From positions 23,311 to 87,310 of the forward strand of contig JADGBX010000001.1 in NCBI GenBank assembly GCA_015231265.1: DNA of 64,000 nucleotides. The letters run 5' to 3'. The notes beneath the pieces were generated by a model. It was given only the letters and a program-made list of their open reading frames with translations. It made no database searches and was not told where the DNA came from. The stretch's first letter is position 1. The number at the start of each line of letters is the position of its first letter. This document shows, one piece after another, positions 3,911-39,400 of the stretch. The translations under genes were made by a program, and so were the position numbers. The stretch comes from Magnetococcales bacterium. Its GTDB lineage: Bacteria; Pseudomonadota; Magnetococcia; Magnetococcales; JADGBX01.

Positions 3911-4774
3911 CGCGATGTGGGCGTGCTTGGTGAGGAACCGCCCCACCCTCTCCCGCACCTCTTTCAGGTGGGTAAAGATCACCACATGCTCCCCCCCTTC
4001 GATGGTCAGATGCTCTGCATGGGGAATGCGCTCCGCAAGAGGGGCTGCGTGCTGTATATAGGGCACCACGGAGTCATCCGTTCCGTGGATCGACAGTACC
4101 GGGGCAGAGATCTGCTCCAACCCATACGCGGTTGAACGGGTGATCTCGATGTCGTTGGTGGTGCCGGAGAGCCGTTGTCCCATGCGATCGTAGGCACTGA
4201 GCAGCAACGCCTTGAAGAGCGGCCCCGCCTCCGGATCGGAGAGTGTCTGCGCGCGCAGTTGGGCATCAGGAATAGAGCGCTGTGCCACCTTGTCGATATC
4301 CTTCTCCGCCATCCGACGCATAAAGCTGACGAACCACGGAATATAGGCCAGAGTCTTCATGACGGTAAACGCGAAGGGAATCGGGGTGTCCATCACATCG
4401 GTACAGGCCGACGCCAGAACAAGACCCCGACATCTCTCCGGATAACGAATGGCAAACTCCAGGGCGGCAGGGCCTCCTCCCGACACCGCCATCACCAGAA
4501 CAGATTCGATCTTCAACGTATCCAGCAGCAGAGCGCACAAATCCGCCTGACTGCTTGCCGTACGACCGGTCCCCAAGGGTGTACCCAGATATCCAGGTCG
4601 AGAAACCGCAATAGTGCGGAATCCCTCGACACCGATGGTCTGCGCCAAGAGACGGCTCTGGTCATGGCCACCCATGGCTCCATGCAGAGAGAGCACCACC
4701 GGACCTTCCCCGAACGCACCATATTCGACAGGACCACGAATGGTCTCAGCGATTTTCACACTATACTCAGACAT
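3905..4774 (-). CDS. alpha/beta-fold hydrolase
   Basis: It has an oxyanion-region HG (VVLSLHGAMGG), a nucleophile elbow (VMAVSGGG) and a C-terminal His context (GGEHVVIF). Confidence 0.65.
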   Translation of the reverse strand: MSEYSVKIAETIRGPVEYGAFGEGPVVLSLHGAMGGHDQSRLLAQTIGVEGFRTIAVSRPGYLGTPLGTGRTASSQADLCALLLDTLKIESVLVMAVSGGGPAALEFAIRYPERCRGLVLASACTDVMDTPIPFAFTVMKTLAYIPWFVSFMRRMAEKDIDKVAQRSIPDAQLRAQTLSDPEAGPLFKALLLSAYDRMGQRLSGTTNDIEITRSTAYGLEQISAPVLSIHGTDDSVVPYIQHAAPLAERIPHAEHLTIEGGEHVVIFTHLKEVRERVGRFLTKHAHIAS

Positions 4775-4830
4775 CTTTCACCCTCTCATCATGGTCATCA
4801 CTGCGGCTTGTCATCCCTCTATCGTGACCC

Positions 4831-5424
4831 TCATCTTCGGATGAACAGTCGCAACAGACTCTCCGGATGTGGCACCTTGAAACTCTCCCTGTTGGTCACC
4901 CTCTGCATGGCCAGCCCTTTGATCGTGGTCCAAAAGAGCATGGAGAGCACATCGGGCGACTCCTGATCGAAAATGCTCCCCTCCTTCTGACCTGCTGCCA
5001 TGATCCTGGCAATCACCGCGTAGGGTTCGCCACTCTCGCGACGCAACACCTCCTTCGCCTCCTCCGGCGTCCCTTCGGAAAGATTGGCCTGGGCGATCAG
5101 CATCACGGTACGGGAGAAGGTCTCTTCATGCAGAGTCTTGAGAAGTTCAACGATGGCGATCCGAATCTTCTCATCCGGGGGAACAGGGAGTGATTCCAAC
5201 CCGGAGGCGGCCTGATTCATTTTTACCAAGGCATCCCCGATCAACGCCGTGAACAGCTCCTCCTTGGAGCGAAAGTAGTGGTAGAGCAATCCTTGTGAGA
5301 TACCAGCCGTGCGCGCAATCTCGGTAATGGTTGTTGCGTGCAACCCTTTTGCTGCAAATCGATCCAGTGCCGCTGCAAGGATCTCCTCACGACGCTGCTC
5401 TTTTTCCTTTCGATTCGTCACCAT
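4831..5424 (-). CDS. TetR-family transcriptional regulator
   Basis: It carries an N-terminal TetR HTH (REEILAAALDRFAAKGLHATTITEIARTAGISQGLLYHYFRSKEELF). The start is set at the internal ATG (MVTNRKEKEQ). It lies upstream of, and on the same strand as, the hydrolase. Confidence 0.8.
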   Translation of the reverse strand: MVTNRKEKEQRREEILAAALDRFAAKGLHATTITEIARTAGISQGLLYHYFRSKEELFTALIGDALVKMNQAASGLESLPVPPDEKIRIAIVELLKTLHEETFSRTVMLIAQANLSEGTPEEAKEVLRRESGEPYAVIARIMAAGQKEGSIFDQESPDVLSMLFWTTIKGLAMQRVTNRESFKVPHPESLLRLFIRR

Positions 5425-5516
5425 CACAAGGCACTTTCCATCGTTATTGATTGAACGTTCATTCAATAATAAATGAGGCCGCACTTTCTCGTCAACACCT
5501 TTCTATCCACACACCC

Positions 5517-5843
5517 TTACGAATCCGTGCCCTGCTCTTTCTCTTCCAATCTCCTCTCTAACAACGCCTTCCAATCTTCAGCAGGGAGATTCCTCTTCAT
5601 TGTATTGCACTCCCTACAGGCGGGAACACAATTGGACTTGGAGGTTTTCCCGCCGCGCACCAACGGTTGCACATGGTCCAGTGTCAATTCCGAGGGGTGA
5701 AAGCGACCTTTACAATAGTGACAGCTTCCGCGACCTTTTCGGTTCTTCCACCATGGAGAGCGTTTCAACGTCTTGGCTTTCTGCCGCTCTCTGTCTATAT
5801 GGTCCTGATCCGAAGCGATCAGAAGGGAGTCGTAGTCGGTCAT
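5517..5843 (-). CDS. small stand-alone HNH endonuclease
   Basis: It has the motif CHYCKGRFHPSELTLDHVQPLVRGGKTSKSNCVPACRECNTMK (the HNH beta-beta-alpha-metal motif with flanking Cys pairs). I chose the start at ATG 5843 because an AGGA sits 6 nt upstream. The longer ORF would run into gmd. Confidence 0.7.
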   Translation of the reverse strand: MTDYDSLLIASDQDHIDRERQKAKTLKRSPWWKNRKGRGSCHYCKGRFHPSELTLDHVQPLVRGGKTSKSNCVPACRECNTMKRNLPAEDWKALLERRLEEKEQGTDS

Positions 5844-5973
5844 ACCCATTCCTGTGAAAGAGAGATCAGCTTGCCGCACCCACATTGGGCGTGCTAGGTT
5901 GCTTGTTTTTTGTTCGAAGGTCCACTGAAACAATCGTTTGATGGACAGACACCCCCCACGGGAACCAAACACC

Positions 5974-7083
5974 ATGACCAAACGGGCTCTGATCACCGGA
6001 ATCACCGGCCAGGATGGCGCCTATCTTACTGAGTTTCTCTTGGAGAAAGGGTATGAAGTGCATGGCGTCAAACGGCGCTCGTCTCTCTTCAATACCGACC
6101 GTATCGATCACCTCTATCAGGGGCCCCATGAGCAGGATCGGCGTTTCATTCTCCACTATGGCGACATGACCGATGGCACCAATTTGACGCGGATCGTCCA
6201 GCAGGTCAAACCGGATGAGATTTACAATCTGGCAGCCCAGAGTCACGTAGCGGTCTCGTTCGAAATGCCGGAATACACCGCCAATGCCGTTGGCATGGGC
6301 ACCTTGCGACTGCTTGAAGCGATCCGCATCCTCGGTATGGAGAAGAAGGTCCGTTTCTATCAAGCCTCCACATCCGAGCTTTACGGCAAGGTTCTGGAAA
6401 CCCCGCAGACCGAGGCGACCCCCTTCTACCCCCGCTCTCCTTATGCCGTGGCGAAGCTTTACTCCTACTGGATCACCGTTAATTATCGCGAGGCGTATGA
6501 TCTCTATGCCTGCAATGGCATCCTGTTCAATCACGAATCGCCTCTACGCGGAGAGACGTTCGTCACCCGCAAGATCACACGCGCCCTCTCCAGAATCAAA
6601 CTTGGTCTTCAAGACACTCTGCACCTGGGCAATCTCGACGCCAAACGCGACTGGGGACACGCTCGGGACTATGTGGAGATGATGTGGTTGATGCTCCAGC
6701 AGGAGAGCGCTGACGACTATGTGATCGCTACCGGTGAGCAACATACTGTACGAGATTTCGTCAACGTTTCCGCCCGCGAACTGGGCATCTCCATTCGCTG
6801 GCAGGGCAAGGGTGTTGAAGAAGTCGGTGTGGTGGCCCACTCCGAGGACGATGTAGTTCGTAAAGGGTCGGTGATCGTGCGGGTAGATCCTCGTTACTTC
6901 CGGCCAACCGAGGTGACGACTCTTCTGGGAGATGCCACCAAAGCGCATAAATTTCTTGGCTGGAAACCACGCATCAGCTTCCAACAGATGGTGGCTGACA
7001 TGATCCGCTCCGATCTGGAGAATGTGGAACGGGATGTGTTGTGTCTGGACAAGGGATTCAAAGCATTCAACTTCCACGAATAG
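5974..7083 (+). CDS. gmd: GDP-mannose 4,6-dehydratase
   Basis: [33 protein letters not shown] ... [11 protein letters not shown] ... SPYAVAKLY is near-colinear with the Gmd sequence as I remember it from E. coli. Confidence 0.95.
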
Positions 7084-7116
7084 CATTCCATAACAGGAAC
7101 GGAAGTGAGGGGAAAG

Positions 7117-8058
7117 ATGGACTCAAATGCACGCATTTACGTCGCCGGCCATCGCGGTCTGGTGGGATCCGCCATTGTTCGACGTTTCAGGGCAGAAGGG
7201 TTCAACACCATCATCACCCGGACCCACAGCGAACTGGATCTTACTCGACAGGTGGATGTGGAGCGCTTTTTTACTGAAGAGAGACCGGAGTATGTCGTCC
7301 TCTCTGCTGCCAAAGTCGGCGGAATTCACGCCAACAACACCTATCCAGCTGATTTTATCGGTATCAACTTGATGATTCAGTCAAACATTATCGATGCTGC
7401 TTGGCGCAATGGTGTTGAGAAGCTTCTCTTTCTCGGCAGCGCCTGTGTCTATCCCAAAGAGTGTCAACAGCCCATCAAAGAGGAGTATCTCCTGACTGCT
7501 CCTCTTGAGCCCACTAATGAGCCTTATGCCCTGGCAAAGATCGCCGGCATCTCGCTCTGTGACTCTCACAACCGACAGCACGGCACCCGGTTCCAAACCG
7601 TGATGCCCAATAATCTCTACGGACCCAACGATAATTTCCATCTGGAGAACGCCCACGTTCTGCCCGCTCTGATCCGTAAGTTCCACGATGCCAAGCTGAG
7701 TGGAGCCCCATCGGTGGAGATCTGGGGAACCGGCAAACCCCGAAGAGAGTTTCTGCATGTGGATGATATGGCAGACGCCTGTCTCTTCATCATGAAGCAG
7801 AACACGACTACCAAGATGCTCAATATCGGAACAGGATCGGATGTAACGATTCGTGAGTTGGCAGAGACCGTCCAAAAGGTAGTGGGGTTTGAAGGAGCCC
7901 TGCGATTCGACACTACTCGTCCCGACGGCACCATGAAAAAACTACTGGACAGCAGCCGCCTGCACGCTCTGGGTTGGCAGGCCAAGATCACTCTTCAGGA
8001 AGGGGTGCGCACCACCTATCAGTGGTTTCTGGAAAACCAAGAGACACTCCGAGGCTGA
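7117..8058 (+). CDS. fcl: GDP-L-fucose synthase (GDP-4-keto-6-deoxymannose 3,5-epimerase/4-reductase)
   Basis: [15 protein letters not shown] ... [18 protein letters not shown] ... [12 protein letters not shown] match. It lies immediately downstream of gmd. Confidence 0.9.
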
Positions 8059-8067
8059 TCCCCTCTT

Positions 8068-9594
8068 CTACCGCACCCCCAACACCTCTTCAGCAAGCGT
8101 CCCCAGGTTGGCAAATTGAGCCATCTCTACCTGCTCCATTTGACCTGTGGTATCACGCCATAAGGAGAGAATGCGATTCTTGCGATGATCCATCAACAGT
8201 GACACGGACTGCTTCTCTTGGCGAATGACTACATCGATCTGTGAAAGATCGATCCCCTGTTTCAATAGTTGGGCCACCACCCCCTGCAAACTGTGCATGT
8301 GCGTCGCGTGCACCGTAAATCGAATGCGTCCCCGTTGCGCCGGAGGGATATCATTCCAGGTGATCCGCTTCACCAGCTCTTCGACACGATTGCTCCCATG
8401 ATCACCGAGAAACCATCGGGTCCAAAAATCGTGACCATAGACGTAATCGGTGGGTGTGACATGGGCCATATATCCAAACTGCCCGGGGATGTGCGCCGTC
8501 ACTCCGGTACAGGTTGATACCCCCTGTGTGATCAACACCTTTTCACCAGACGCTCTCTTAAACTCACCGACATCGACCCGCTTGACACTCTCCCCATTGG
8601 TTGAACGAAACAGGCGGTCGGAAACAGCCAGTGGATGGTATCTGTGGCTCTGCAACCGCTCGATGATGCGGGGAAAGAGCCTATCCATCTCTTCAAGAAG
8701 CGTCTCCGTGACAACCTCGTCCAGATCCTGTTCTGCGATCAGAACCCATCTGCTCTCCATAAAGGTGAATGTTTCAAACGCACTGAACACCCGCTTGTTT
8801 CTGTAGTCACGCAGCAGTCGTGTTCCTTCTTGGCCGGAACGAAGCGCCTGATCTACCGCCTCGGTCGTCACCCGCTGTTGCAGCTTGTCATCCTCCAGAA
8901 AACGGGACTCCGTCAGCAACCGGCTATGGGCATTCACCAGATAGGTTTCACCGCTGCGGCCGGGGCGGCCATAATTGATCAGTATGTCGTTGATACCATT
9001 CAGAGCCAATTGCAACACTATATACCCATTCAATCGATTCTCATGGGTAACAGGCACAATGAAAAACGCTGCGGCTTCCTGCGATGGGTGATAGTACTCA
9101 AAATCAACGAATGTGACCTGTTTTGGCGTCTGCTTAAAAGCGCGCGCCAGGAGAGAGTCGGAGAACTTATGATCATTTAGATTCTGTAAAAAATCATCCT
9201 CTTTCCGAACCGTATGAAAGAACTTGCCCTGAAGATCGACGAACAACATGTCATAGAACATGCCCAGTTCATTGACGAACAGAACATCCAACCCTTTCTG
9301 GACCCTCTGCCCTGCGACTGATCCTCCTTCACCGGCCCGACGTATGCGAAGCATGGCCAGAAACAGACGCTCCAACTGCTCATTGGTGCGCACCTCTTCG
9401 GCACGTGCCCGCTGTCTGTGGAAGAACGACTCAAGGCGCTCTTTCTGCTCTGCACGAAGGGATGCCAGACGATTGAACGCCATGCTCTCGATAGCAATGG
9501 TCGACTGGGCGTAATTAAAAGAGAGAGTGATAGCTGGAATCGCAATCATCACAAGCAAAATGTTTTTATACACTTTGGAACGTTGTGCCTTCAT
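8068..9594 (-). CDS. N-terminally anchored Cache-domain sensor fused to a CheD-like (deamidase-fold) C-terminal domain
   Basis: The start ATG at 9594 is preceded by GGGAAGGGA. The N-terminus (KAQRSKVYK + NILLVMIAIPAITLSF) looks like a signal anchor. A Cache signature is present (YYHPSQEAAAFFIVPV, GRSGETYLVNAHSRLLTESRF, WVLIAEQDLDE). The C-terminal segment VDVGEFKRASGEKVLITQGVSTCTGVTAHIPGQFGYMAHVTP resembles the CheD core (..IGEY..L.T.LGSCV.V...D....G.AH.MLP). No second TM segment is present. Confidence 0.75.
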   Translation of the reverse strand: MKAQRSKVYKNILLVMIAIPAITLSFNYAQSTIAIESMAFNRLASLRAEQKERLESFFHRQRARAEEVRTNEQLERLFLAMLRIRRAGEGGSVAGQRVQKGLDVLFVNELGMFYDMLFVDLQGKFFHTVRKEDDFLQNLNDHKFSDSLLARAFKQTPKQVTFVDFEYYHPSQEAAAFFIVPVTHENRLNGYIVLQLALNGINDILINYGRPGRSGETYLVNAHSRLLTESRFLEDDKLQQRVTTEAVDQALRSGQEGTRLLRDYRNKRVFSAFETFTFMESRWVLIAEQDLDEVVTETLLEEMDRLFPRIIERLQSHRYHPLAVSDRLFRSTNGESVKRVDVGEFKRASGEKVLITQGVSTCTGVTAHIPGQFGYMAHVTPTDYVYGHDFWTRWFLGDHGSNRVEELVKRITWNDIPPAQRGRIRFTVHATHMHSLQGVVAQLLKQGIDLSQIDVVIRQEKQSVSLLMDHRKNRILSLWRDTTGQMEQVEMAQFANLGTLAEEVLGVR

Positions 9595-9678
9595 CGTTCC
9601 CTTCCCCAAGAAAGCAGTCAGCAATGGATAAGCAAATATTCACATTCTCTATAAATTTTTTTTAATGTCAATCAGATC

Positions 9679-10104
9679 TTATATATTTCGCTCGAGTAAA
9701 TAGACGATTACGGCGTATCTTCCCCCCTTTCCGAGAGTGACCAAGATCAGAAAACGCCAAAAAGAGTACCTGAGTACTCCGGCAATTACCGTCAACGGAT
9801 CACCGATCACCGGAACCCACGCCAGCAGCAGTGACCACGCGCCATAGCGTTGAAACCGCTCTTCCGCCTTCCGGATCTCTTGACGATTCACCGGAAACCA
9901 CCGCCGCTCCAGAAAAGAGATACCCCAGAAACCAAGCCCCCAATTGAGACAGGCGCCCAACACATTACCGAGAGTTGCAGCAAACCATAAAGCGGCGGCT
10001 GTTTGCTGCGCATCGCTCAGTAAGGCAAGCAGAAGGATTTCAGAGGAGAGAGGAAGGATCGTTGCGGCTAAGAGAGAGAGGAGGAACAGCTCAAAGAGAA
10101 CCAT
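9679..10104 (-). CDS. YqaA/DedA-type small inner-membrane protein
   Basis: 141 aa and multi-TM. RYGAWSLLLAWVPVIGDPLTVIAGVLR is the characteristic YqaA/SNARE-associated motif. Confidence 0.7.
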   Translation of the reverse strand: MVLFELFLLSLLAATILPLSSEILLLALLSDAQQTAAALWFAATLGNVLGACLNWGLGFWGISFLERRWFPVNRQEIRKAEERFQRYGAWSLLLAWVPVIGDPLTVIAGVLRYSFWRFLILVTLGKGGRYAVIVYLLERNI

Positions 10105-10362
10105 ATCACTGTCATCAATGCGTCAGAGAGGTGTCAAAATCCGTAAGATTTTTCCGGTTTGAAAATAAATCAAGGAAAAAAAACTAAAAAAACTAAAAAG
10201 TTGATTCAGTGCGCAACCGCTTGATCAATGACGATGTTCACTCTGAAGAGAGAGTTGATATTTGAGCATGGCATGTATCATGCATTAAATAAAAATAACC
10301 GTTCGAATTCAAGTTCCTTCGGCATCTGCCGATAAGGTAATCAAGAGATACGGTGCGAAACA

Positions 10363-10581
10363 ATGATCTTCGGAATCGGACTAATGAGCATGTTAAGCGA
10401 CCTTGGACCCTTTCATATGATTCTGCAGTCGGGCGGCGTCCGGAACGGACTGAGCGTCTCGGCGGGGCAGAAGAGCGGCTGGCGTTCACCTGGGCAGGAT
10501 GTCCAGATGCAGACCGATCGCCGCAAGAACGAACAGGATGAGTTCTCCCACATTCTGGATGAGGCCCTGCGCAAGACCTGA
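10363..10581 (+). CDS. hypothetical small protein (weakly supported)
   Basis: This 72-aa ORF lies in an otherwise empty 540-bp gap. Its 3' half uses genome-typical GC-ending codons (..QMQTDRRKNEQDEFSHILDEALRKT). It has no clear SD and no recognisable family. Confidence 0.3.
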   Translation: MIFGIGLMSMLSDLGPFHMILQSGGVRNGLSVSAGQKSGWRSPGQDVQMQTDRRKNEQDEFSHILDEALRKT

Positions 10582-10644
10582 GGCCCTTCGAAACAGTTCG
10601 GAACCATCGGCGCCCTGCCCTCAAGCACGGCGTCGATTTTCGTT

Positions 10645-11391
10645 TTAGAACGCCTGTTTCTCCAGAATGATCACCATGCGAAAGGCCATCAGACGTCCCA
10701 GCAATGGCATCACTCTCGACTCCAGCGCCAAAACAGTGGGAACAATCGCCGATGGGATCAGGCTCCACGGTCTGAACCCTCCCGATAAGGGATAGGCAAA
10801 GAGGCTGTGCCGTCTCACCTCAAGAACGCTCAATCCTGGAATCTCCGCTTCGAACTGCGCCTTCATACGGCTGAACAGCAAGGTTGGAATCGCCTGGTTG
10901 GCTTCAAAGGCATCCAACTCCGGATCGATCTCCCCCTCCTGCATGGGGTCGGCGGACATGATCACGTCTTCAGGATGGAACCAGGTATAGAAGATCCGGC
11001 TGATCGGTGAGATGTATGGCTCCACCAGCACCACACGACCTCCCGGTTTCAATATCCGCTCCGCCTCTCTGAGAAAGCGCATGGGCCACTGAATGTGGTG
11101 TAGAACATCAAACAGCACCACATTGTCGAAACGAGACTCAGCAATGGGCAGCCTCTGGGCATCTGCAAGCAGATCGAGCCAGGGCGCGGGCAGGATGTCG
11201 GTGGAGATCACATTGGGAGCGAAGGATTTAAAATTCCCTGAACCTCCACCGATCTCCAGCGTTGAACCATCGACACACGCCTCGGCCATGATGCGATAGA
11301 GATCGTTATAGATGGCGCGCAACACCGGTTTGCGCTGCCACTGAAGATTCTGCGCATCCAGGCGGTGATCCGTGGGAGGGGTCGTGGACAT
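10645..11391 (-). CDS. class I SAM-dependent methyltransferase
   Basis: It has SAM motif I (TLEIGGGSGNF) and a post-I/II region (FDNVVLFDVLHHI, ILKPGGRVVLVEP). It is the last gene of a four-gene same-strand cluster. Confidence 0.75.
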   Translation of the reverse strand: MSTTPPTDHRLDAQNLQWQRKPVLRAIYNDLYRIMAEACVDGSTLEIGGGSGNFKSFAPNVISTDILPAPWLDLLADAQRLPIAESRFDNVVLFDVLHHIQWPMRFLREAERILKPGGRVVLVEPYISPISRIFYTWFHPEDVIMSADPMQEGEIDPELDAFEANQAIPTLLFSRMKAQFEAEIPGLSVLEVRRHSLFAYPLSGGFRPWSLIPSAIVPTVLALESRVMPLLGRLMAFRMVIILEKQAF

Positions 11392-11409
11392 GACGGGGAG
11401 AGCCCTGTT

Positions 11410-12906
11410 CTAGAATGCTTTGAGCTTCTTGAAGGCAAACACCACCATCTGCAACAGCAACCAGCCATGCCGAAAGCGAGAGATCTGCGTCTCTCCGTAA
11501 CGTCGTGCAGCATAGCGAATCGGCACTTCGACGATCTTGAGATTCATCTTTGCGGAACCGAAAATCAGATCAAAATCCCCAAAGGGATCGAAATCCCCGA
11601 AATAGGCACGATTGGCTGCCAGTCGTTCATAGTGACGACGACGCATCACCTTGGTACCGCACAGGGTATCGGTGAACTTCTGATTGAGCAGCCAACTAAA
11701 GAGCCAGGAGAAGGTGCGATTGGCCCAGAAGTTCAGAAAACGCATCGCTTCCCGTTCCATGGGATAGATCAACCTGGTGCCGTTGATATACTCCCCCTTA
11801 CCCTCCGCAAGTGCCTTGTAGAACTTGGGCAACGTCTCCGGTGGTACGGTAAGATCGGCATCCAGGATCATAAGAATATCGCCTCGCGCCTCACCAAACC
11901 CTTTGCGCACCGCATCCCCTTTACCGATACCATCCTGCTTGAACACCTTGATGTCGTACTGGGGATAGGCGTCCCGAACCCGTTCACACTCCTCGAATGT
12001 TCCGTCCTGGCTCCCCCCTTCCACATAGAGGATCTCAATATCATCACAGAATCTGGGCAACCGCTGTACTGCCGGTTCGATGTTGCCTTTTTCATTGCGA
12101 CAGGGGATCAACACGGAGCAGGAGAGACCCGGTTCCGCTGCATCACGCATGGGACGCGCGACGATGTAGTTGCGCAGACAGAGGTTGCGAATACCCGGCA
12201 GCGTTCCGATAAATCGGTTGATCAACGGCCCGAGCCCTAAGAGATGGATCGGCACCAGTTGCCGCCACTCCATCTTCACCGGCTCAAAATCGGCCAACTC
12301 CAACAATCCGGTGATGTCATCCGTCGAGAACCAGTTCATCTCCACCTGGGGAACATGCTGACCGATCGCCTCAGCCATTTTCAAAACCGGCGACCAGAGC
12401 CACGAGTAGTAAGCAACGACCAGACGAGTATCCCGGTTACAGAGCGAATGGAGACTGGCGAAGGTGGCTTCGCAATCATCCAGATAACCGATGGTGTCGG
12501 AGATGATGATCACATCGAACGGCCCTTCCAGGCTGTCGATCAACTCCGGGTCCTCCATGTCACCGACAATGAATGTACACTCCGGAACATTGGCTTGTGC
12601 CTGTTCGATCATACCGGCACTGAGATCCACCCCCACACCGTACGAGGGTTTCAGCGTCTTGAGCAGACGGCCATTGCCACACCCCAGTTGCAGGATTTTC
12701 TGCCCTTCTGAAATGAGAAAGGAGAAGTAGCGATCATCTTCTGAATGAAAATAGCGGTTCTTTTCGATCCAGGCATCCCTCTCCGGAGCCAGATCGTTGG
12801 CAAGATCGACAATCGCCTTCTTGCGGCTGGGCTGGGGTAGATTTCGACCGATCATCGGGGGCTTTGGTGTCTCGTTCCCGGTGTCATCGTGGGCAGTCTG
12901 GGTCAT
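11410..12906 (-). CDS. fusion protein: N-terminal SAM methyltransferase + C-terminal GT2 polyprenyl-phosphate-type glycosyltransferase
   Basis: The N-terminal half carries ILQLGCGNGRLLKTL ... FDVIIISDTIGYL. The C-terminal half carries SVLIPCRNEKGNI ... GKGDAVRKGFGEARGDILMILDADLTVPPE (DxD) ... a C-terminal hydrophobic helix WLLLQMVVFAF, as in Dpm1/ArnC/GtrB-like enzymes. Confidence 0.8.
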   Translation of the reverse strand: MTQTAHDDTGNETPKPPMIGRNLPQPSRKKAIVDLANDLAPERDAWIEKNRYFHSEDDRYFSFLISEGQKILQLGCGNGRLLKTLKPSYGVGVDLSAGMIEQAQANVPECTFIVGDMEDPELIDSLEGPFDVIIISDTIGYLDDCEATFASLHSLCNRDTRLVVAYYSWLWSPVLKMAEAIGQHVPQVEMNWFSTDDITGLLELADFEPVKMEWRQLVPIHLLGLGPLINRFIGTLPGIRNLCLRNYIVARPMRDAAEPGLSCSVLIPCRNEKGNIEPAVQRLPRFCDDIEILYVEGGSQDGTFEECERVRDAYPQYDIKVFKQDGIGKGDAVRKGFGEARGDILMILDADLTVPPETLPKFYKALAEGKGEYINGTRLIYPMEREAMRFLNFWANRTFSWLFSWLLNQKFTDTLCGTKVMRRRHYERLAANRAYFGDFDPFGDFDLIFGSAKMNLKIVEVPIRYAARRYGETQISRFRHGWLLLQMVVFAFKKLKAF

Positions 12907-13008
12907 TTCCGAATCCTGTCAATCATATTGAACATCATCTTCTCCTGCATCCGAGCAGGAGCATCTATTGTTAATGGGAAAGCGGGTTAAGCAAGGGATA
13001 TTCAACCA

Positions 13009-14043
13009 TTATGATAAGGCACGGTTCTTCTTCTCCATCTCAGCCCGACCCCCCTTCCGGCGCGTAAAGAGCCAGACCGGCCCTCCTGGCAGCCCGGTCG
13101 CTAGAATCACCAATCCGAATCCAACGGAGAGGACGAATGCCTCTTGAGCCGGCACCCCGATAAAACCGAAGGCAGCGATCATCGCCCCTTCACGTACTCC
13201 CCACCCGGCCAGGGAGATAGGAACCACTGAAACCAGCACGACAGGTGGAACCAACACCAGACACGCCAGATAGGAGACATCGACACCCACCGCCAAGGCC
13301 AAACAATAGACCACAAATGGATTGGAAGCATGGACGAACATGGAGATGCCCAGAGTGACTCGCGCCGCTCGATCATGGCGAAGGATAGCCCAGGCATCGG
13401 AAGAGAGGGTGATGAATCCGCGAACAATGCGGTTGCCTCGAAAACGTTCCGGGAGACGCTTGAGCATTAGCAGGATGACGACAGCCACGGCAGCGGCAAG
13501 AATCAGGGCCAAGATCATCCAGAATGAGAGAGTGTTCCCCAACTGGAAAAAGAGCAGTGGCAGACAGAGAATCACCAACAGCGTCAGACCGATCAGAGCA
13601 ATAATACGATCCATCACCACACTGCGCACCGACAGGCCACCGGGATAACCATCCCGATAGAGCCGCCATGCGCGCACTGCATCCCCGCCCACTGTTGAAG
13701 GCAACGCCTGATTAAAGAAGATCCCGATGAGTACCAACTGCAATCCGTAGAGATAACTGACGGAGACCTTCATGGTCTCAAGAACCGCCATCCAGCGAAA
13801 TACCACCAGAAAGATGCAGAACAGTGCGGTCACAAAAGCTGCCAGCAGAAACAGGGGATCGGCAGAACCGAGTTGCTCACCGGTCTTTTCAAGATCATTG
13901 GCAGGAAAGAGCCAAGCGATCAAACCAATGGATATTGCTGCCTTGATAACAAACCCGAGGATATTCTTTAAACCACTTCCACTGCCGGTCACCGGATCAG
14001 AGAGTCGTGTGGTGTCGGCCGCACTTTCTTTATCGTTATCCAT
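13009..14043 (-). CDS. flippase-like membrane protein (LPG-synthase TM-domain / UPF0104 family)
   Basis: It is polytopic, and its N-terminal pattern LKNILGFVIKAAISIGLIAWLF...LLAAFVTALFCIFLVVFRW is typical of this family. The start ATG at 14043 is preceded by GGGGTGGGGAG. Confidence 0.65.
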   Translation of the reverse strand: MDNDKESAADTTRLSDPVTGSGSGLKNILGFVIKAAISIGLIAWLFPANDLEKTGEQLGSADPLFLLAAFVTALFCIFLVVFRWMAVLETMKVSVSYLYGLQLVLIGIFFNQALPSTVGGDAVRAWRLYRDGYPGGLSVRSVVMDRIIALIGLTLLVILCLPLLFFQLGNTLSFWMILALILAAAVAVVILLMLKRLPERFRGNRIVRGFITLSSDAWAILRHDRAARVTLGISMFVHASNPFVVYCLALAVGVDVSYLACLVLVPPVVLVSVVPISLAGWGVREGAMIAAFGFIGVPAQEAFVLSVGFGLVILATGLPGGPVWLFTRRKGGRAEMEKKNRALS

Positions 14044-14103
14044 ACACTCCCCACCCCCCATCACACCGCTCCAATTGGGATAACATCCGGCAATAACGGA
14101 CCA

Positions 14104-15477
14104 CTACCGTGTCTGCCCTCTTTCCCGCCGCCGTATATACCACTCCTGCACGACCAATACACCTATTGCGGTCATTACAATCAGCGTCGGTTCCAACGGC
14201 AAGCGATAACGGGACGCGTTGACCACAGGACCGGTCACAGCAAGAATATACCCGAAGGCCGGTACAAGATACCACAGACTCCAGCGGTCAAAACCACGCC
14301 CTCGCAACCAGGCGATGGCTCCCATCAGCGCCAGCAGCCGCAGTAAAAGTGTCAGGAGGATGGCAGGAATCATCAGCGCAAGATAGAGCCGGTTATCCGG
14401 ATGGGTGAGAAAATTCCAGATCTTGGTGCCAAAGTGGGAGCCCTCAGTTGTGTAAAAGCGGGGCCTTTCCATACCGATAACGGCGGGAAGAGAGGAGATG
14501 CTGGGACTCATGATATTGATACCTCCACCGACACTCCAACCATACACCATCTTCCAAACACCCAAGTTCTGGAATGCTTCTTTGGCAGTCTCAATCTGAA
14601 TGCGACTCCAGGTAAAAGGATTCTCCGGAACCTCTTCGTAGCCCTGCTCCAACCGACGTTGGCGAGCCTTCTCCTTCATCTGACTGACACCACTCTCCCA
14701 CGGGACACCATCCACATAGTTCATGGTGAGAGGGACGTACCAAATCAGCACCGTCCCACCCGATTGACTGCTGAGAGAGGCGACACCATACGTCTGTTTA
14801 TTGTGGATCAGAACCGGAGAGATCAACGCCATTGCCAAGCCGAGACAGACCACACCCTGCATCAAAGCCGAATGCCATGCCGTTCGCCGGACAACGAGAA
14901 CAAACAGAAAGAGCAGAATCACCACCGGCAGAAAATACATCATCACCGGTCGGGTAAGCAGGGAGAGGCCCAAAGCGATCCCCAAAGCGATTGCCCGCCC
15001 CCATGTCGGAACCTTCAGATAACGCACCGCCATCAAAAGGTGCCAGGAAAAAAGCAACAGAAACAGTGTGTCAGTAAGGATGATCGAGGCATGCCCGATC
15101 ATATTCAAATTGAGAACAGCCAACCAGGCGGCAGGGAGAAACAGCTTCTCCGACACTTCACGTCCCAATAAGGCGATCAGGAGACATGTGACCGAGTCCA
15201 TCAACGCCTGACCGATCAGAGGAGGCACGAAGAAATCCGGCAACCACTGAAAAAAGAGACTCAAAAACATAGGGTAAAGCGGCAAACGGGCAGGATTATG
15301 CCAGTCTCCGTCAACCAGAATCGCATCAGCAATTCTGAGGTACTTTTTCGAGTCTGAAAGTGTCAACCACTCCAGATCAGTGGCAGAAAATGCGAGAAAC
15401 AGCAGGCGCACCAACAGTGCGACCAAAAAGATTCGGCGCAGAGTGGCAAAGGGGAGCGTTTGAGATTCCGACGTCAT
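14104..15477 (-). CDS. GT-C fold membrane glycosyltransferase (ArnT / PMT_2, GT39/GT83-like)
   Basis: 457 aa with about 10 or more TM segments. The N-terminal region (LVRLLFLAFSATDLEWLTLSDSKKYLRIADAIL..G) resembles the first periplasmic loop of ArnT/PMT enzymes. It is the first gene of the cluster. Confidence 0.7.
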   Translation of the reverse strand: MTSESQTLPFATLRRIFLVALLVRLLFLAFSATDLEWLTLSDSKKYLRIADAILVDGDWHNPARLPLYPMFLSLFFQWLPDFFVPPLIGQALMDSVTCLLIALLGREVSEKLFLPAAWLAVLNLNMIGHASIILTDTLFLLLFSWHLLMAVRYLKVPTWGRAIALGIALGLSLLTRPVMMYFLPVVILLFLFVLVVRRTAWHSALMQGVVCLGLAMALISPVLIHNKQTYGVASLSSQSGGTVLIWYVPLTMNYVDGVPWESGVSQMKEKARQRRLEQGYEEVPENPFTWSRIQIETAKEAFQNLGVWKMVYGWSVGGGINIMSPSISSLPAVIGMERPRFYTTEGSHFGTKIWNFLTHPDNRLYLALMIPAILLTLLLRLLALMGAIAWLRGRGFDRWSLWYLVPAFGYILAVTGPVVNASRYRLPLEPTLIVMTAIGVLVVQEWYIRRRERGQTR

Positions 15478-17896: not shown

Positions 17897-19639
17897 ATGT
17901 CCACCGAGATCACCGATTCTTCCAGACTTGAAAGCCGACTCGATATGATTGACGGCAAAGGCTACAAAGCCTACCACACCGTCAAAGGGGTGTATCAACT
18001 GCCGGGATTCATCCTGCTGATCGACCATATTCAGGGCGATCCCTTTGCCGACCCTTCACGCATAAGAGTAAGGACCGAACACGGGAAAGCCCGGCTGCCT
18101 CCGGAACTCTACGACACGGAAACAGGGCGCCGTGCCTTGGAAGATTTTCTGCTTCGGCAACTGGCAACCGCCATCTCCACGACCGTTCGGGGTAACAGAG
18201 GCAGTGGAAAGAGCGGGGTCATCGCTGTTGTCCCCCATGGGCAGACGGTTCTGAAACGCAATGCGGTGTTGATCCTTGACGACGGCTCCATTGAAGCACG
18301 CATCCGTGTCGGACTTCCGGCCAACGGTCGCCGTATTGCCGCAAGACACGCCCGCATCATGCTGCTGGAAGAGCTGCCTCTGGTGGTGGAGAAAGCGCTT
18401 CTCCGTATCGCCTCAGAACGTCGTAAAGAGATGACATCTCACGTAGCCTGCATCGAAGATCAGCACTACCTGCGCCACTGGATCAAGGAGAAGAAACTGG
18501 CCGCCTTTGTTGCAGACGGATCCACGCTGCCTCGCGCTTCCGGTATCGACGACTCTCCTCTCACAACGAATGCCGTTCCTTTCCGAGCCCCGGAGAGTCT
18601 AGCCAGAACCGTAACCCTCCCCCATGCCGGAACGCTCCGTGGACTGGCGATTCCACTTGGTATTACACTGATCGTCGGCGGCGGATTCCACGGCAAGTCG
18701 ACACTGCTCAAAGCCCTGGAACAGGGTGTCTACGATCATATTCCCGGTGATGGCCGGGAGAGGGTCGTCACCACATCTACAGCCGTCACCATTCGGGCCG
18801 AAGATGGCCGTGCCATGACCGGCGTGGACATCTCACCATTCATCAAAACCCTGCCCGGCAATCGCGGCACGACCCATTTCAGCAGCAGCAACGCCAGCGG
18901 TAGCACCTCTCAGGCTGCCAACACTGTAGAAGCGGTACGCAGTGGTGCCACTCTCCTACTGGTTGACGAGGATACGGCTGCAACCAACTTCATGATACGC
19001 GATGCACGCATGCAAGCGCTGATTCATCCTGATCAGGAGCCGATCATCCCGTTTTCACAACAGATTCGGAGACTCTACACGGCGGATTGTGTCTCTACTA
19101 TTCTGGTCATGGGGGGTTCAAGCGCCTTCTTCGATCATGCTGACACCGTACTCTCAATGGTGGAGTATCACCCCCACGATGTTACGCAGAAGGCGCGCAG
19201 TCTCTGCCCTCCATGCACACCCGCCCCCGGCGCAGAGCGCAGATCCACCCCTCTCATTCCACACCCCTACCAACCACGACTGCTGGACAGCGCATCTCTG
19301 ACACCGCCCGACTGCCATCGCAAACGCCGTATCCGCCCATTGAATGCAAAGCGCCTGCTTTTTCATGGCAGTGAGATCGATGCCAGCCGAGTTTCACAAC
19401 TTGTGGATCGGGGCCAATTGGCAGCCATCGGATATCTGCTTCGATACTGCGGCCGACACTTTGCTCAACACTCTTTGGAAACAGCGATGAAAATGGCCCT
19501 CGATCACATCGAGAGCCAAGGTCTGGATACTCTTTCACCCACTATCACCGGAGAACTCGCTCTACCCCGACTTCAGGAAGCAATGGCGGTTGTGAACCGT
19601 TACCGGGAACTACGCCTTATCGAACCCCCTTCTTCCTGA
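17897..19639 (+). CDS. ABC-class ATPase domain protein (predicted ATPase of the ABC class, function unknown)
   Basis: The N-terminus is [41 protein letters not shown] and the P-loop-like segment is [30 protein letters not shown], matching the layout of that family. The start is taken at MSTEI. Confidence 0.7.
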
Positions 19640-22421
19640 GGTAGGGTGCGTACTTTTTGTCTTCTCCGATGATGTGATCCACCAACCACTCCTTGAGGAA
19701 GTTCATCAGATCCATATTGAGCGCTGCGCCCTCTTCATGGAATGCCCGCTGGAACTCCGTCACCTGCGCCACCAGTTTCCGATGCAGCTCCTTGTGCTCA
19801 TTGGTCTCTGGATAACCATATTTGTCGAACATCTCCTCTTCAAGAGCAAAGTGCCCGGCAGTGTAGTTGATCAACTCATCCAGGATCGCTCCCAGAGCGC
19901 TTCGACCCTTACCGGCGTTCATCGCCTTGTAGAGTGTATTGATCAGATCCACCAGCTTGCGATGGTCCCTGTCCACCGCCTTGATATTGAGCTTCAACTG
20001 ATTGGTCCACGGCATCAGATCGCGATCCTGATCACCCTCGGAAACAAGGTAGAGCTGATCCAGATAGTCGAACATCAGACGACGAATACCGTTGAACTTC
20101 TTCATGCCTTCCCGGGCTTCTTCGTGTTTCATATCGCTGCACAATCCAACGATATGCCGGGCCTGTTCATGCACTTTGAGATGGGTTTCTCCCAGTTCAC
20201 GGTAAAGCTCCAGATGACCGAACTTTTCCGTCCCTTCGGAGTAGTACCATTTCCCGAACGCACACTCCCGTCCGCTGGCCACCTCTTCCGGCTTCAACTG
20301 GGCACGTCCACGAATCACCTGCTCCAATCGTCCCAACCACTGCAGATGCGCCTGTTTGATATCATGCACCTTGAAGGTCTCACCCGGAATTTTCAAACCC
20401 CGCTTGGTCTGAATCAATGCATCACTGGTTTCGCTCACCACATCGGTCAGCATACCGGAGTACTCCACGGAACCACCGAAGAAGTGGATCAACTCCATGG
20501 ATTGGAACATCATCTTCTGAACCACGGCTGACGCGGCGAAGATCTCATTAGCAGCCTTCTGAACATTCCCTGCATTGTTGTTGGCTGAAGAACTCTGTTC
20601 TGCCACCCTGTTGGCATTGGCTGCCACCTCGGACGCCGAACGGGCGATCTCCGATGTCCCGGTAGCCGCCTCAAGCGCCGCACGCGCCACCTCCGTCGAG
20701 GCACTCTCCAACTCGGACGCGTTACGCGTCACCTCTTCAGCCGCTGCGGTCACCTCACCCATGGAGGCGGTGATCTCACCCACCGACTGGGTCTGCCCAT
20801 CCACCGCATCGGTGATGCTGCGGTTGGTCTCTTCAATCTGGGAAATAATGTCGGTGATGGAGTGGGTTGCATCGGCAGCATCACGGGTTTTGCCCTGAAT
20901 TTCCGCCGTCTTACGTTCAATCATCTGGGTCGCTTCAGCAGTCTGCTGCGCCAACTCCTTCACTTCGTTGGCCACCACGGCAAACCCTTTGCCCGCCTCA
21001 CCGGCACCTGCCGCCTCGATGGAGGCATTGAGTGCCAGCATATTGGTCTGATCGGCAATGGTCTTGATCGCTCCCACCACCTTGCCGATCTCCGCTGCGG
21101 AAACAGCAAGGTCATCCATAACCTTCAGAGTCTCGCCGGCATTTGCAGTCGCCGTCGACGATTTCTGATCCGCTTCCCGACAACGATCCCGGATATCCCC
21201 CAGGGAGTTGGTCATCTCGCCAACCGCCGAGCCGACAGTCCGTACCGACTCATTCACCCGTTCCAGACTCTGATTGACCTGGGTGATGTTGCCGGTCATC
21301 TGTTCGGCTGCGGACGCCATGGTGTTGACGTTGTAGCTCGCCTCCTCCGATGCTGCGGCAATCGCATTGACATTCTCGGAAAGCTGAACCGCCGCATCGG
21401 AGACGATCTCGATACTCTCCACAGCCGATTCGATATTCATGGAGAGATCTTTGGTCTGATTGTCGAGCTGGTCGTTCTCTGCGACCACTTTTTTCGCGAA
21501 GGAGAGCGTGTCGTCGGAATCTTTATTGAGCAGCTTTTTCAGATCAAGCTGCTCGGCCACCACGGCTTGAACCGTCTCAGATTGCAGCGTCAACGTTCGA
21601 ATCACGTGGACGATCTGATCTGCCATCACATTGATGCTACCAGCGATCCGTGCCAGAGCCGTCCCACCCTGAATCGAGATCCGCTTGGTCATATCACCCC
21701 GAGACATGTAATCGACCATCTCATCGATGTGAGCAAGCATCCGGCTGATGGAATTGAAGAAGATCAGACTGATAATCACCGCAAATCCGACCAGAACCCC
21801 ATTGGCAATGAAGAGATAAAAGGCAACCTTCTGCTCGTTTTCAGCCAGAGCTGCGGCATTATTGCTTGTTTCTGCGGAGATTCTAAGAATCTCCTGTGTC
21901 AGTTGATCCATCCCTTTGGCCGAGGGTCGGTCCTTACCCTTTACGGCCTTGTCGATGCGAGGAATACTGGAGATATCCCCAGCCCTGAAATGGGTGGCAA
22001 CAGCTGCCTTGTAACTGACGATCAGTTCCGAGTGATCGTGGATCAGACGATCGACACCCATCACACTCATACCCATCTGCTGCATGAGGGATCGGGCGGT
22101 GACAAGGCGGCTCTGCACATCATCATGCCGCTCCTGGAACCGTTTATAATACTTGAAATCATTGATCGAACCGGTGTGCTTATAGCCACGAAGCAGCGTA
22201 TTCTTCCACTCCTGGATCTGTCGGCCAAAGAGCGTTGCCGCCTCCTGGGTCGCCACCGTTGCCTCGCTGGTCAGAGCCAGTACACGCATCTGGTCGCTCT
22301 GCTTCTGGATGGTGTACCCCTGCCAGAAGGTTACTGCTCCTAGAACAATTGAGAAGCCCGTTAATATAATCAGTTTAAAACGAATCGAAATATTATCGAT
22401 TCTTTCCATGAGTGCCTTCAT
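19617..22421 (-). CDS. methyl-accepting chemotaxis protein with C-terminal CZB (zinc-binding) and bacteriohemerythrin domains
   Basis: It has two TM segments, a HAMP domain and an MCP signalling hairpin ([37 protein letters not shown]). A CZB module follows (HLQWLGRL...ECAFGKWYY...[12 protein letters not shown]), then hemerythrin ([43 protein letters not shown]). Confidence 0.9.
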
Positions 22422-36474: not shown

Positions 36475-39400
36475 ATGATCCATATGGAAACGCAAGCGAC
36501 ACTGGAGCTTATACCCAGTTCGTCGCACCCGCACTCTCATATTATCCGTATCCGAATTGAAGGAGATTCTATTGCTCCCGACCACACGGTTGGTGCGGAA
36601 ACGCTTTCCGTATTGCGCACCTGTGTTGATGGATATCGTCAGATATTAAGAGACGGTGCACCTCCGGATCTCGTTGCAGACACCGCTACTACTGTGGGCA
36701 TTGAGCTGTTCAATTATGCCTTATCCAGTATCTGGGAACCCCTCTCAGCACACCTTTCCGATGACCGGCCTCTGATGCTTTCCATTCGATCCACCGATCA
36801 GGAAATGATCAATCTGCCATGGGAAATGTTACGGCTTCCAGACGGAACCACTGTGGGACTATCTCCCGAATTTGCTGTTAGGCGCCTCCCGGATAGTGCG
36901 GATGATTCCGCTCGACGCTGCATCATTCCCGCTTCAAAACCATTACGCATCCTTCTCTTTGCTACTTCAATGGATTCAGGAGAACCTGACGGGCAGAGCG
37001 TTGATTCGACAATGACAGCACCATCACAACGTGCAGATCTCGCCCTTGCACTGATACGCACCCACCGCGACCTTCATGTTGAGATCTGTGATACCGAAAC
37101 CTTTGACGCTCTCAAGAAACAGATCCAACAGTTTCAACCACACTGTGTTATTCTGTCAGGAACCACAGCGGTCCGTAGCGACAACAGCTTCTTTCTTTTC
37201 AACGAACATAACGCCTCAGATCCTCGTGCGGCCAATGAAATCTTCCGTGATCTTTTCGACTGTTCTGCCGTAGCTTCCGTCATCGTTACAGGAAGCCCTA
37301 ATGGAAAACCACCTCCCGTTGCATCCTCTCACGCCCTTGCTGATAAATTGGCAAAAATGGGGATTCCTTTAGCAATTTCCTGGCCGATCACCATTGGATC
37401 ACCTCTTAATCACCGTGCCTTCAGTACACTCTTTAAAACCCTGCTGGATGGGCGTAGCATTGATCGAGCGCTGACGGCAGCACGAAATATGGTTGCCACA
37501 TCAAAGAATGCAGAAGCTACCTTTGACTGGACACTACCCGTACTCTTTTCCACCAGCAATCGGACCCATTTGTTCAATATGAGCACTTCAACCCCGACGA
37601 TCCCATATTATCCGGAACCATTGATACTGTCCGGTTTCTCGGATGAAACACTGATTTCAAACCCTGAGGATCCCGGATTTGCATCCTCAATCGACCACTG
37701 TATTGATGCTCTTCTGCACTCAAAAAAGACAGCACTGGTCGTGAGCGGAGCACCCGGTTCTGGAAAAAGCGTCTTTGCAGCAACGGTCGCAGGGCACCTG
37801 GAGAGAGAGAACAACATCCCCTGTGCCATCTGCATCGATCTTGAGAACAGACCTCTCACTTCTGCCCACTTCCTGGATACTCTTCGTGTAACACTCCAGA
37901 ACTGCGGATGCACTGAAGAGGCCGAAGTTCTAGGAGATCCGACCATTCCACTTGCAGACCGCATGGGACTGCTGCCGCAGATACTGAACCAACGGCAACC
38001 GATGACGGTTCTCCTTGATGGAATCGGAGCCTCAACACCAACTGATGAAGAGAACATTCATCCAGAGTTGTCAGGGGTATTAAGCTATTTATTATCAGCT
38101 TTGAAACCACCCTCCACCATACTGCTTACAACCCGAAGAACCGCCGTGGTCCACGCTATCATTCCTTCAGATTGCGCTGTGGAGCATTTTGAGATTCCCA
38201 TCTATCCTGAAGACTCTTTTCTCCGCTTTCTCATGGAGGACCGGTATGTTAAGGAGCGCATTCAAGAGGATGAACTGAGTAGACCGTTGCTCTCAGAACT
38301 CTATCATGCATTCGGCACACAACCCGGCTATCTAAAAGCGGTACGAACAGTCTTACGAGACATCGATACGCATGATCTTCAACAGAGGATGAAAGAGATC
38401 TCTGTGGCTCATGAGGAAGAAGAGTCGAGTCAACCGACAACCCAGCACACGAATAGCTTTGAGGCGCTCTTTCTCTCAAGAATCTTCGACAACTATCCAC
38501 TTGAAACGCAAGATCTTCTAGAACGACTAGCCCCCTTGTCAACCACAGTGGTTCCATCAGACATCAGTACACTTGCTGATAAACCATTTGAGGACATCTC
38601 CGATGAAATCGAATGGCTTGTAGATGCTGGATGGATCGAACGATTTGAAGATAGAGAGAAGCACTATTATTACCGTATTAACGCTATTGGCCAGTCGTGG
38701 TTGCTCCGTAACGACCGCTTCAAACAAGGGCGGCGCAACAGCCTGCTCAGGTCTACGGCCCATTATCTTTCCAATTCTGCCAGAGTTTTGCTTGAGACTC
38801 CTGCAGAAGGAATGAATATCTCAAAACGAACTAGAGCCTGCGCCCTTCTTCTGGAAGGACGGGCACTCTTTATTGAGAGTGGTGATTTTGAGCCGGCTCT
38901 GGAGGTTTCCAACCAATTGAGTGAGCAGCTATTCCACGCTGGATTCCATCCTACCGTCGGTCGCCTCAACGCACTGTTGGATACAGACATCCCACACCCG
39001 GCTTTTACCAATTGGATGGCCGCTGCCCATTTTCATTCTGGTAGACTGGAGCAAGCTGCAAACACCTACTATCGCGCCCTGGAACAGTCTGAACGGCATC
39101 ACTCAGCGGAAAAGAGTATCTCTCAACATGGGCTCGCTCTAATCGATCTGCAATCCGACCATTATGATGACGCCAGGGAACGTCTCCTGAAGGTGTTGGA
39201 CTTCCAACGCTCTAGTGGCAACCTGGATGCTGTCCTCTCTCTCTGGCTACAGATTGCGGAGATCGACGAGAAGCGGGACATCCCGGAAGATAAACAGAAG
39301 TCACTGGAAATGGCTCTTGGCATTGCCAAGCAGAGTGCCAACCGGACAGCTGAAGCGGAGATCCAACGACTTATCGGCCAGCACTGTCTTGACGTACAAC

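Follow-up and report, generated by a model that had tools for sequence, protein, structure and literature searches.

The 64,000-nucleotide stretch of a Magnetococcales bacterium genome analyzed here (hereafter the window; assembly GCA_015231265.1, contig JADGBX010000001.1, positions 23,311 to 87,310 of the forward strand) encodes on its minus strand a 508-residue protein in which a Cache ligand-binding domain is followed by a domain resembling CheD, the chemoreceptor deamidase, and the question raised by this locus is on which side of the membrane such a protein resides and what it acts upon. CheD itself is a binding partner of CheC, and its targets are methylation helices in the cytoplasm. 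Our answer comes in parts of unequal firmness. The architecture, the export and the fold of the window protein, that is, a single N-terminal membrane anchor, an exported Cache sensor and an equally exported domain of CheD-like fold, we hold jointly with high confidence. The composite reading built on these parts, in which a membrane-anchored deamidase outside the cytoplasm is gated by its Cache domain and takes an exported partner protein as its target, we regard as evenly poised between right and wrong. The gene, its parts and the signals preceding it are as follows, in window coordinates.

8068..9594, minus strand: complete coding sequence of 508 amino acids plus stop, comprising signal-anchor, dCache_1 domain, linker helix and CheD-fold domain (open-reading-frame list and translation)
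9514..9594, minus strand: basic n-region MKAQRSKVYK and hydrophobic core (residues 11-27), predicted uncleaved Sec signal-anchor with the N-terminus inside (Kyte-Doolittle)
8737..9444, minus strand: dCache_1 ligand-binding domain, residues 51-286 (Pfam PF02743, E 2.6e-13)
8593..8724, minus strand: charged linker helix, residues ~291-334, at the position of the second transmembrane segment (TM2) of canonical dCache sensors (alignment with homologue P0005)
8071..8592, minus strand: predicted CheD-fold (CNF1/YfiH-like cysteine hydrolase) domain, residues ~335-508, ~175 residues (AlphaFold2, Foldseek and profile)
9598..9605, minus strand: Shine-Dalgarno-like GGAAGGGA, ~5 nt 5' of the ATG at 9594 (read from the sequence)
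9644..9671, minus strand: promoter-like TTGACA-16-GAGAAT (consensus scan, 10/12 matches; a consensus match only)

The open reading frame (ORF) spans 8068..9624 on the minus strand, and the start at the ATG at 9594 is preferred over the TTG at 9624 because the Shine-Dalgarno-like sequence precedes the former. The 508-residue product thus obtained is 100% identical to NCBI protein P0001, which is labeled "cache domain-containing protein [Magnetococcales bacterium]". The promoter-like site sits within the 85-nt gap that separates the gene from the VTT/DedA gene upstream. When four sequences of the C-terminal domain are made into a profile and searched exhaustively as a hidden Markov model (HMM), 234 representative clusters (50% identity) are found at E ≤ 1e-3, of which 200 pass E ≤ 1e-10; the proteins are almost without exception ~500 residues long and carry the domain at the C-terminus. 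The ORF is therefore a real gene and no chance ORF.

Regarding topology, a Kyte-Doolittle scan of the 508-residue protein finds residues ~11-30 as the sole hydrophobic segment of transmembrane (TM) grade, with no stretch beyond residue 40 reaching the TM threshold and none that is hydrophobic in the linker (residues ~291-334). The dCache_1 match (50.5 bits against a cutoff of 45 bits) has its counterpart in precomputed PF02743 matches for relatives of the window protein, and Pfam detects no HAMP, MCPsignal, HisKA or GGDEF domain in the window protein, for which an NCBIfam scan gives zero matches and phmmer, run with the whole protein against PDB sequences, no match. In the family members inspected, second TM segment and transmitter are likewise missing after the Cache domain. 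The closest Cache homologues, 27-40% identical over the Cache region, are the periplasmic domains of methyl-accepting chemotaxis proteins (MCPs), kinases and GGDEF proteins equipped with TM2/HAMP, and alignment with one homologue, P0005, places its TM segment exactly where the window family has the charged helix. This linker is predicted to be helical in both AlphaFold2 models; the full-length model, from a 5-sequence alignment, has a predicted local distance difference test (pLDDT) score of 60 and is too poor to use.

The N-termini of the family point the same way. Signal-like starts, with a short n-region (median 9 residues, mean K+R 2.4, mean D+E 0.23) and then a hydrophobic core, are found in 92 of 102 full-length representatives, and the 15 residues past the core hold on average 2.2 acidic residues; the remaining 10 begin only within Cache helix 1, as if their gene calls had been cut short. 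A lipobox, [LVIFM][ASTVILG][GAS]C, closes the h-region in 22 of the 102 (for instance LLLPLLLSA/C), and the lipid anchor that it specifies places Cache and CheD-like domain outside the cytoplasm in those members, the window protein having the anchor form, without lipobox. On these sequence grounds it is strongly supported that the N-terminal segment acts as a Sec signal-anchor and that Cache and C-terminal domain both lie outside the cytoplasmic membrane. The first-pass annotation, made from the letters of the window, had described one N-terminal hydrophobic segment without a second, a Cache module without HAMP and an extracytoplasmic position for both domains, all of which agrees with the results above. 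The fusion itself has no exceptions: among the 119 loci listed (see below), the CheD-like domain lies C-terminal to a Cache domain in every sufficiently complete ORF, and apparent stand-alone CheD-like proteins of 160-190 residues proved to be artefacts (one in-frame stop, one contig-edge truncation), so that the Cache fusion is obligate. Locus L131 holds, at 3-872 on the plus strand, a family gene with one in-frame stop inside the Cache domain, likely a pseudogene or an assembly error.

The C-terminal domain matches no Pfam (2025) or NCBIfam (2026) model. Pfam CheD (PF03975), the profile proposed in the first pass as a check on its CheD-like assignment, finds neither the window protein nor any of 64 family members at E ≤ 10, six genuine plasmid-borne CheDs serving as positive control with scores up to 1.7e-29. 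The fold proposed at the same time finds its support in structure: an AlphaFold2 model of the domain, computed from a 64-sequence alignment, reaches a pLDDT of 94.1 and a predicted TM-score (pTM) of 0.89, and Foldseek comparison with the PDB returns Thermotoga maritima CheD (2F9Z, chain 2f9z_C) as best match by a wide lead (E 6.6e-9; TM-score 0.57 normalized to the query and 0.69 to CheD, 169 aligned columns). Next in rank are NTAN1, CNF1/CNFy and YfiH/PgeF at E 2e-4 to 1e-2, with all seven matches at E ≤ 1e-3 being CheD, NTAN1 or CNF1 and with YfiH and CNFy ranking below. The family profile, run against PDB sequences, ranks CheD first (E 0.032) with Thr, Cys and His in register, and hhalign of the family against a profile of the six CheDs gives a score of 18.8 (P 0.04, probability 1.3%) in the same register, higher than in any of 40 column-shuffled controls (at most 17.7) and than with unrelated profiles (11-13). 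The extent of the domain, put at ~145 residues before, had to be corrected to the ~175 residues encoded by nt 8071-8592. As modeled, the domain defines a family of its own within the CheD/CNF1/YfiH-like fold, so far without annotation, with an intact active-site motif and with CheD as its nearest known relative, and is not Pfam CheD; with the CNF1/YfiH-like superfamily it has in common both the fold and the conserved Cys/His pair.

The catalytic triads of the two best-matching enzymes are Cys27/His44/Thr21 in CheD (T. maritima numbering) and Cys75/His92/Ser69 in NTAN1 (PMC7022378). In the window protein, the motif Thr356-x5-Cys362-x15-His378 aligns in register with Thr21, Cys27 and His44 of CheD, as does the G-E-[YF] motif that precedes it. 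The residues concerned, with their conservation among homologues, are the following.

8527..8529, minus strand: Thr356, aligned with CheD Thr21, kept in 133/138
8509..8511, minus strand: Cys362, putative catalytic nucleophile, aligned with CheD Cys27, kept in 137/138
8461..8463, minus strand: His378, putative catalytic base, aligned with CheD His44, kept in 138/138
8446..8448, minus strand: Asp383, family-specific residue in an H-x2-P-x-D-x2-Y motif, kept in 137/138

The codons of Cys362 and His378 are exactly those singled out in the first pass as the catalytic pair, whose conservation is borne out by these counts. Further conserved positions among the 138 domain sequences are Gly358 (134), Thr363 (132), Tyr386 (133) and Trp479 (128), and Asp383 is not conserved in the CheD alignment compared. 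Near-invariance of Cys, His, Thr and Asp383 across phyla favors catalysis over mere binding, and the domain is, as far as its residues tell, probably an active amidohydrolase.

Genome loci were collected with a degenerate DNA pattern of the active-site motif that covers 68% of the family. At least 119 species-representative genomes match this pattern, and all 119 listed hold true family members: ~45 are from Planctomycetota (including Scalindua, Kuenenia and Brocadia), ~33 from Desulfobacterota and relatives, ~14 from Bacteroidota, 6 from Spirochaetota and 7 from Pseudomonadota, a second Magnetococcales metagenome-assembled genome (MAG) included, with singletons from Nitrospinota, Omnitrophota, Fibrobacterota, Hydrogenedentota and others. 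Nearly all carriers are MAGs, and the one cultured strain among those listed is Desulfatibacillum alkenivorans DSM 16219 (L111). Several MAGs hold a pair of paralogous family copies, the two on separate contigs, namely at L035/L049, L026/L061, L039/L077 and L080/L110 (Desulfotignum, Brocadia, Thermoguttaceae and Planctomycetales).

Neighborhoods were taken as uncentered 8-kb blocks, and neighbor counts are lower bounds because of this. Clustering of all adjoining ORFs yields two recurrent same-strand neighbors, identified with Pfam as MCPs (MCPsignal, 1e-41 to 1e-47) and CheW (1e-35 to 1e-37). An MCP or CheW gene lies within 3.5 kb at 34 of the 119 loci listed (~29%), an MCP being directly adjacent on the same strand at 24, and the fraction is 18 of 47 (38%) in the subset flanked on either side by 1 kb or more. 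MCP, CheW and Cache-CheD-like gene form a tight module, the gene order of which is permuted between loci, and some modules extend into genes for a response regulator (RR)-Hpt protein, a CheA-like kinase and CheR. The earlier view that the exported domain would have no receptor to act on is, because of this operon link to MCP and CheW, too strong.

The partner MCPs are two-TM receptors with periplasmic regions of 390-650 residues, and one homologous periplasmic domain recurs in 18 of 21 complete MCPs with a median identity of 44% over 97% of the shorter sequence. Among adjacent MCPs, 20 of 25 carry it (20 of the 21 evaluable), four of the five exceptions being N-terminally truncated fragments. 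The domain is all-helical and is built of 2-4 internal repeats in which the motifs C-x2-F-L-x2-Q and F-K-x-Q-A recur; against Pfam HBM it scores 29.5 bits, just below the cutoff of 29.8, and its conserved Gln residues are candidate deamidation sites. The MCPs that carry it constitute a distinct family. Examples of such partner MCPs, which are found at ~27 other loci as well, are these.

L010:2014-4722, minus strand: partner MCP
L053:2348-4687, plus strand: partner MCP
L066:3964-6978, minus strand: partner MCP
L099:47-3169, minus strand: partner MCP

At L013 the partner MCP (4562-7196, plus strand) is split into three consecutive ORFs, likely a pseudogene or an assembly error. Linkage to an MCP is clade-specific, in that the linked fraction of the five nearest relatives is 0.48 for linked and 0.24 for unlinked members, which is reached by 1 of 2000 permutations.

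Turning to the relatives of the window gene, none of its ten nearest in the genome set is MCP-linked, an apparent MCP link at L001 having been rejected as a spurious weak self-match. At seven of these ten, an exported protein of ~163 residues with a single, C-terminal CxxCH is encoded just downstream, at 20-30 nt in six loci and at 545 nt in L019.

L092:659-1150, minus strand: CxxCH cytochrome c'-like gene
L094:996-1490, minus strand: CxxCH cytochrome c'-like gene
L103:1438-1938, plus strand: CxxCH cytochrome c'-like gene
L020:1969-2463, plus strand: CxxCH cytochrome c'-like gene
L083:3908-4399, plus strand: CxxCH cytochrome c'-like gene
L114:1753-2244, plus strand: CxxCH cytochrome c'-like gene
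L019:5488-5955, minus strand: CxxCH cytochrome c'-like gene

These are the Scalindua-type genomes that hold the nearest relatives of the window protein, and in Thiomargarita-type loci a class I cytochrome c with a signal peptide is encoded downstream. P0003, which is closely related to the window protein, is encoded at two loci, and at each the gene of a 123-residue multi-pass membrane protein without Pfam match follows 17 nt downstream (L001:5186-5557 and L002:4333-4704, both plus strand); this protein may be another subclade-specific partner. The window gene itself has gmd, fcl, the VTT protein gene and envelope-glycan genes as neighbors.

5938-15477: envelope-glycan/lipid cluster around the gene, with GDP-mannose dehydratase, GDP-fucose synthase, an LPG_synthase_TM protein and a PMT_2/ArnT-like glycosyltransferase

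Two methyltransferases, one of them fused to GT2, belong to the same cluster. This envelope-gene neighborhood is not conserved beside relatives of the window gene, and VTT/DedA, present at only one other locus, was rejected as a recurrent neighbor. One MCP alone is encoded in the 64 kb, a 934-residue chemoreceptor (19617-22421, minus strand) with MCPsignal, C-terminal CZB zinc-binding and hemerythrin domains; it was considered as partner and rejected, lying 10 kb off, being of the CZB plus hemerythrin type and having no HBM-like domain. With neither MCP/CheW nor cytochrome as neighbor, the window copy is therefore an orphan.

In the composite reading, the C-terminal domain would hydrolyze Gln/Asn side-chain amides as a deamidase, or would at the least bind substrates in the manner of such an enzyme. 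Its target would be a side-chain amide in a protein, which is also what CheD, BLF1, CNF1 and NTAN1 act on, rather than a small molecule of the sort processed by YfiH. Ligand binding by the Cache domain would control either the activity of the enzyme or its access to the exported partner. This partner would in about one-third of the lineages probably be the HBM-like periplasmic domain of the co-operonic chemoreceptor, and the signal sensed by the Cache domain would thereby be fed into a CheW/CheA array out of the periplasm. In the subclade of the window the conserved neighbor is a different one, an exported haem protein that would be a four-helix bundle like cytochrome c'. Both recurrent partners would then be exported helical bundles, like the natural substrate of CheD, a likeness that is suggestive as an analogy and is not evidence. 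We consider it somewhat less than an even bet that the co-encoded exported partner is the substrate. The most far-reaching form of the proposal is that chemoreceptors are covalently modified in the periplasm, with a Cache-controlled, anchored CheD-like deamidase converting Gln/Asn in the co-operonic HBM-like MCP domain and, in the window subclade, targeting the cytochrome c'-like bundle; this we rate as rather unlikely.

Several observations weigh against the composite reading. The sequence likeness to CheD is marginal both by PF03975 (0/64 at E ≤ 10) and by hhalign (1.3%, P 0.04), and the cytochrome c' match is sub-threshold (Pfam Cytochrom_C_2, 3e-4; 22.2 versus 26.5 bits). About two-thirds of the loci listed, the window included, have no MCP or CheW nearby, and the MCP partnership, being clade-specific, cannot simply be transferred to the window gene. 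Adjacency to an MCP would, furthermore, equally fit co-regulation without direct contact.

The domain could alternatively be a periplasmic hydrolase of small amides, such as free or peptide Gln/Asn, the amidated peptidoglycan stem peptide or another metabolite, with the Cache domain regulating it or recruiting its substrate and with the co-encoded MCP, where present, sensing product or substrate. YfiH/PgeF, of the same fold and among the structural matches, has UDP-MurNAc-peptides as substrates, the N-terminus of a peptide is the target of NTAN1 (PMC7022378), two-thirds of the loci listed come without MCP, and the window gene adjoins envelope-glycan genes. The closest structure and the T-C-H motif, however, fit CheD and hence protein Gln, not the Zn-binding Cys-His-His of YfiH, the pairing with one MCP periplasmic-domain family (20/21 evaluable) in CheW/CheA/CheR clusters points to a protein partner, and the envelope-gene neighborhood is not kept in relatives, and we judge hydrolysis of small amides unlikely. 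An operon link to MCP and CheW requires interaction only, and CheD has a receptor-binding role separate from deamidation; the domain might thus be a non-catalytic binding module that docks as co-receptor on the helical bundle of its partner without modifying it, comparable to Bacillus subtilis CheD, which activates receptors by binding, and to periplasmic binding proteins feeding MCPs. An active enzyme, and not a pseudo-enzyme, would be expected to keep Cys, His, Thr and Asp383 almost without exception, as the family does, and a non-catalytic module seems quite improbable to us.

Known CheD function, together with adjacent MCP, CheW, CheA and CheR genes, would also suit a protein of inverted or untranslocated topology, that is, a membrane-tethered cytoplasmic CheD plus Cache deamidating the methylation helices of the neighboring MCP. 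This arrangement runs counter to the lipobox signal peptides of 22/102 members, to the N-in charge bias (K+R 2.4 and D+E 0.2 before the segment, D+E 2.2 after it), to the homology of the Cache domain with periplasmic TM1-dCache-TM2 sensors and to the nature of the operon partners in the window subclade, c-type cytochromes, which mature only outside the cytoplasm; we give it next to no credence. That the CheD likeness is convergent or a prediction artefact, with an unrelated fold behind it, is very improbable as well, given a very confident model (pLDDT 94, pTM 0.89), top seven significant structural matches from one superfamily with CheD far ahead, an independent sequence profile that ranks CheD first in the PDB in the catalytic register, and the independent genomic link to chemoreceptor genes.

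Three further features of the window lie apart from the Cache-CheD-like gene.

36475-40011, plus strand: 1178-residue CHAT-protease/NACHT-type NTPase/TPR protein, STAND-like, possibly a defence or programmed-cell-death module
48987-50993, minus strand: Ser/Thr protein kinase domain fused to a C-terminal FGE-sulfatase (formylglycine-generating-enzyme-like) domain
5517-6005, minus strand: HNH endonuclease ORF, 162 residues, between a TetR regulator and gmd

The CHAT/NACHT/TPR gene opens a dip in GC content at ~38-48 kb, from ~0.54 to ~0.47-0.48, and the genes after it in the dip are housekeeping-like, encoding phosphofructokinase (PFK), an FAD-oxidase/CCG Fe-S protein and an M1 aminopeptidase. 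The longest ORFs of HNH and gmd (the latter 5938-7083, plus strand) overlap head-to-head by ~70 nt.

To our knowledge, all known covalent modification of chemotaxis receptors is cytoplasmic, comprising CheR methylation, CheB demethylation/deamidation and CheD deamidation, and all known Cache sensors signal across the membrane to a cytoplasmic transmitter. The present family departs from both rules, in that a near-invariant CheD-fold site lies outside the membrane, fused to a Cache domain and with no route of its own to the cytoplasm. Partnership with CheW and with MCPs carrying an oversized helical domain suggests a new signal input to chemosensory arrays and yields a testable substrate hypothesis. 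Environmentally important anaerobes, among them anammox Planctomycetota, sulfate reducers and Bacteroidales, are widely represented among the carriers, whose family proteins are at present annotated only as "cache domain-containing protein", and the cultured carrier of the MCP-linked form, D. alkenivorans DSM 16219, makes experiments feasible. Periplasmic deamidation, if true, would constitute an extracytoplasmic layer of sensing, memory or adaptation that mirrors CheD, CheB and CheR, and would be categorically new. The first pass knew of no described Cache-CheD architecture, and in the full-text literature searched, a set with few subscription-journal papers, we likewise found no account of a CheD-like domain joined to Cache, of CheD homologues that are exported or of receptors deamidated in the periplasm.

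Among known systems, CheD (PF03975; 2F9Z) is the closest, being the best structural match and sharing the Thr-x5-Cys-x15/16-His and G-E-[YF] motifs and, in many members, the company of che genes. The family differs from it in escaping the Pfam model, in being ~20 residues longer, in having Asp383, Tyr386 and Trp479 as invariants of its own and in being always dCache-fused and exported; CheD, for its part, occurs free in the cytoplasm and consists of a single domain of ~160-200 residues. The window copy, in addition, lacks che neighbors. NTAN1, CNF1 and YfiH have the same fold and Cys/His core, with NTAN1 also sharing the [ST]-x5-C-x16-H spacing, but these are eukaryotic N-degron enzymes, secreted toxins and cytoplasmic editors of peptidoglycan precursors, respectively, and none is Cache-fused. 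The N-terminal half, TM1 plus dCache_1, is homologous to that of the dCache_1 transmembrane sensors (MCPs, histidine kinases and GGDEF proteins), which continue into TM2, HAMP and a cytoplasmic output where the family has an extracytoplasmic enzyme-fold domain. The working model, of a ligand-binding protein that would signal to the periplasmic domain of a co-encoded receptor, is analogous to the periplasmic binding proteins of the MBP-Tar and LuxP-LuxQ pairs; those are soluble proteins of the solute-binding protein (SBP) fold without enzyme domain, whereas members of the family are anchored by membrane segment or lipid and carry a conserved Cys/His site. The partner MCP domains, finally, resemble those of the HBM chemoreceptors (McpS, PF16591) in their near-cutoff HBM match and all-helical make-up, and differ in being much longer (390-650 residues) and in having extra internal repeats. 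The fold and the sensor are thus both known; what is new is the family, its architecture, its cellular compartment and its genomic partnership.

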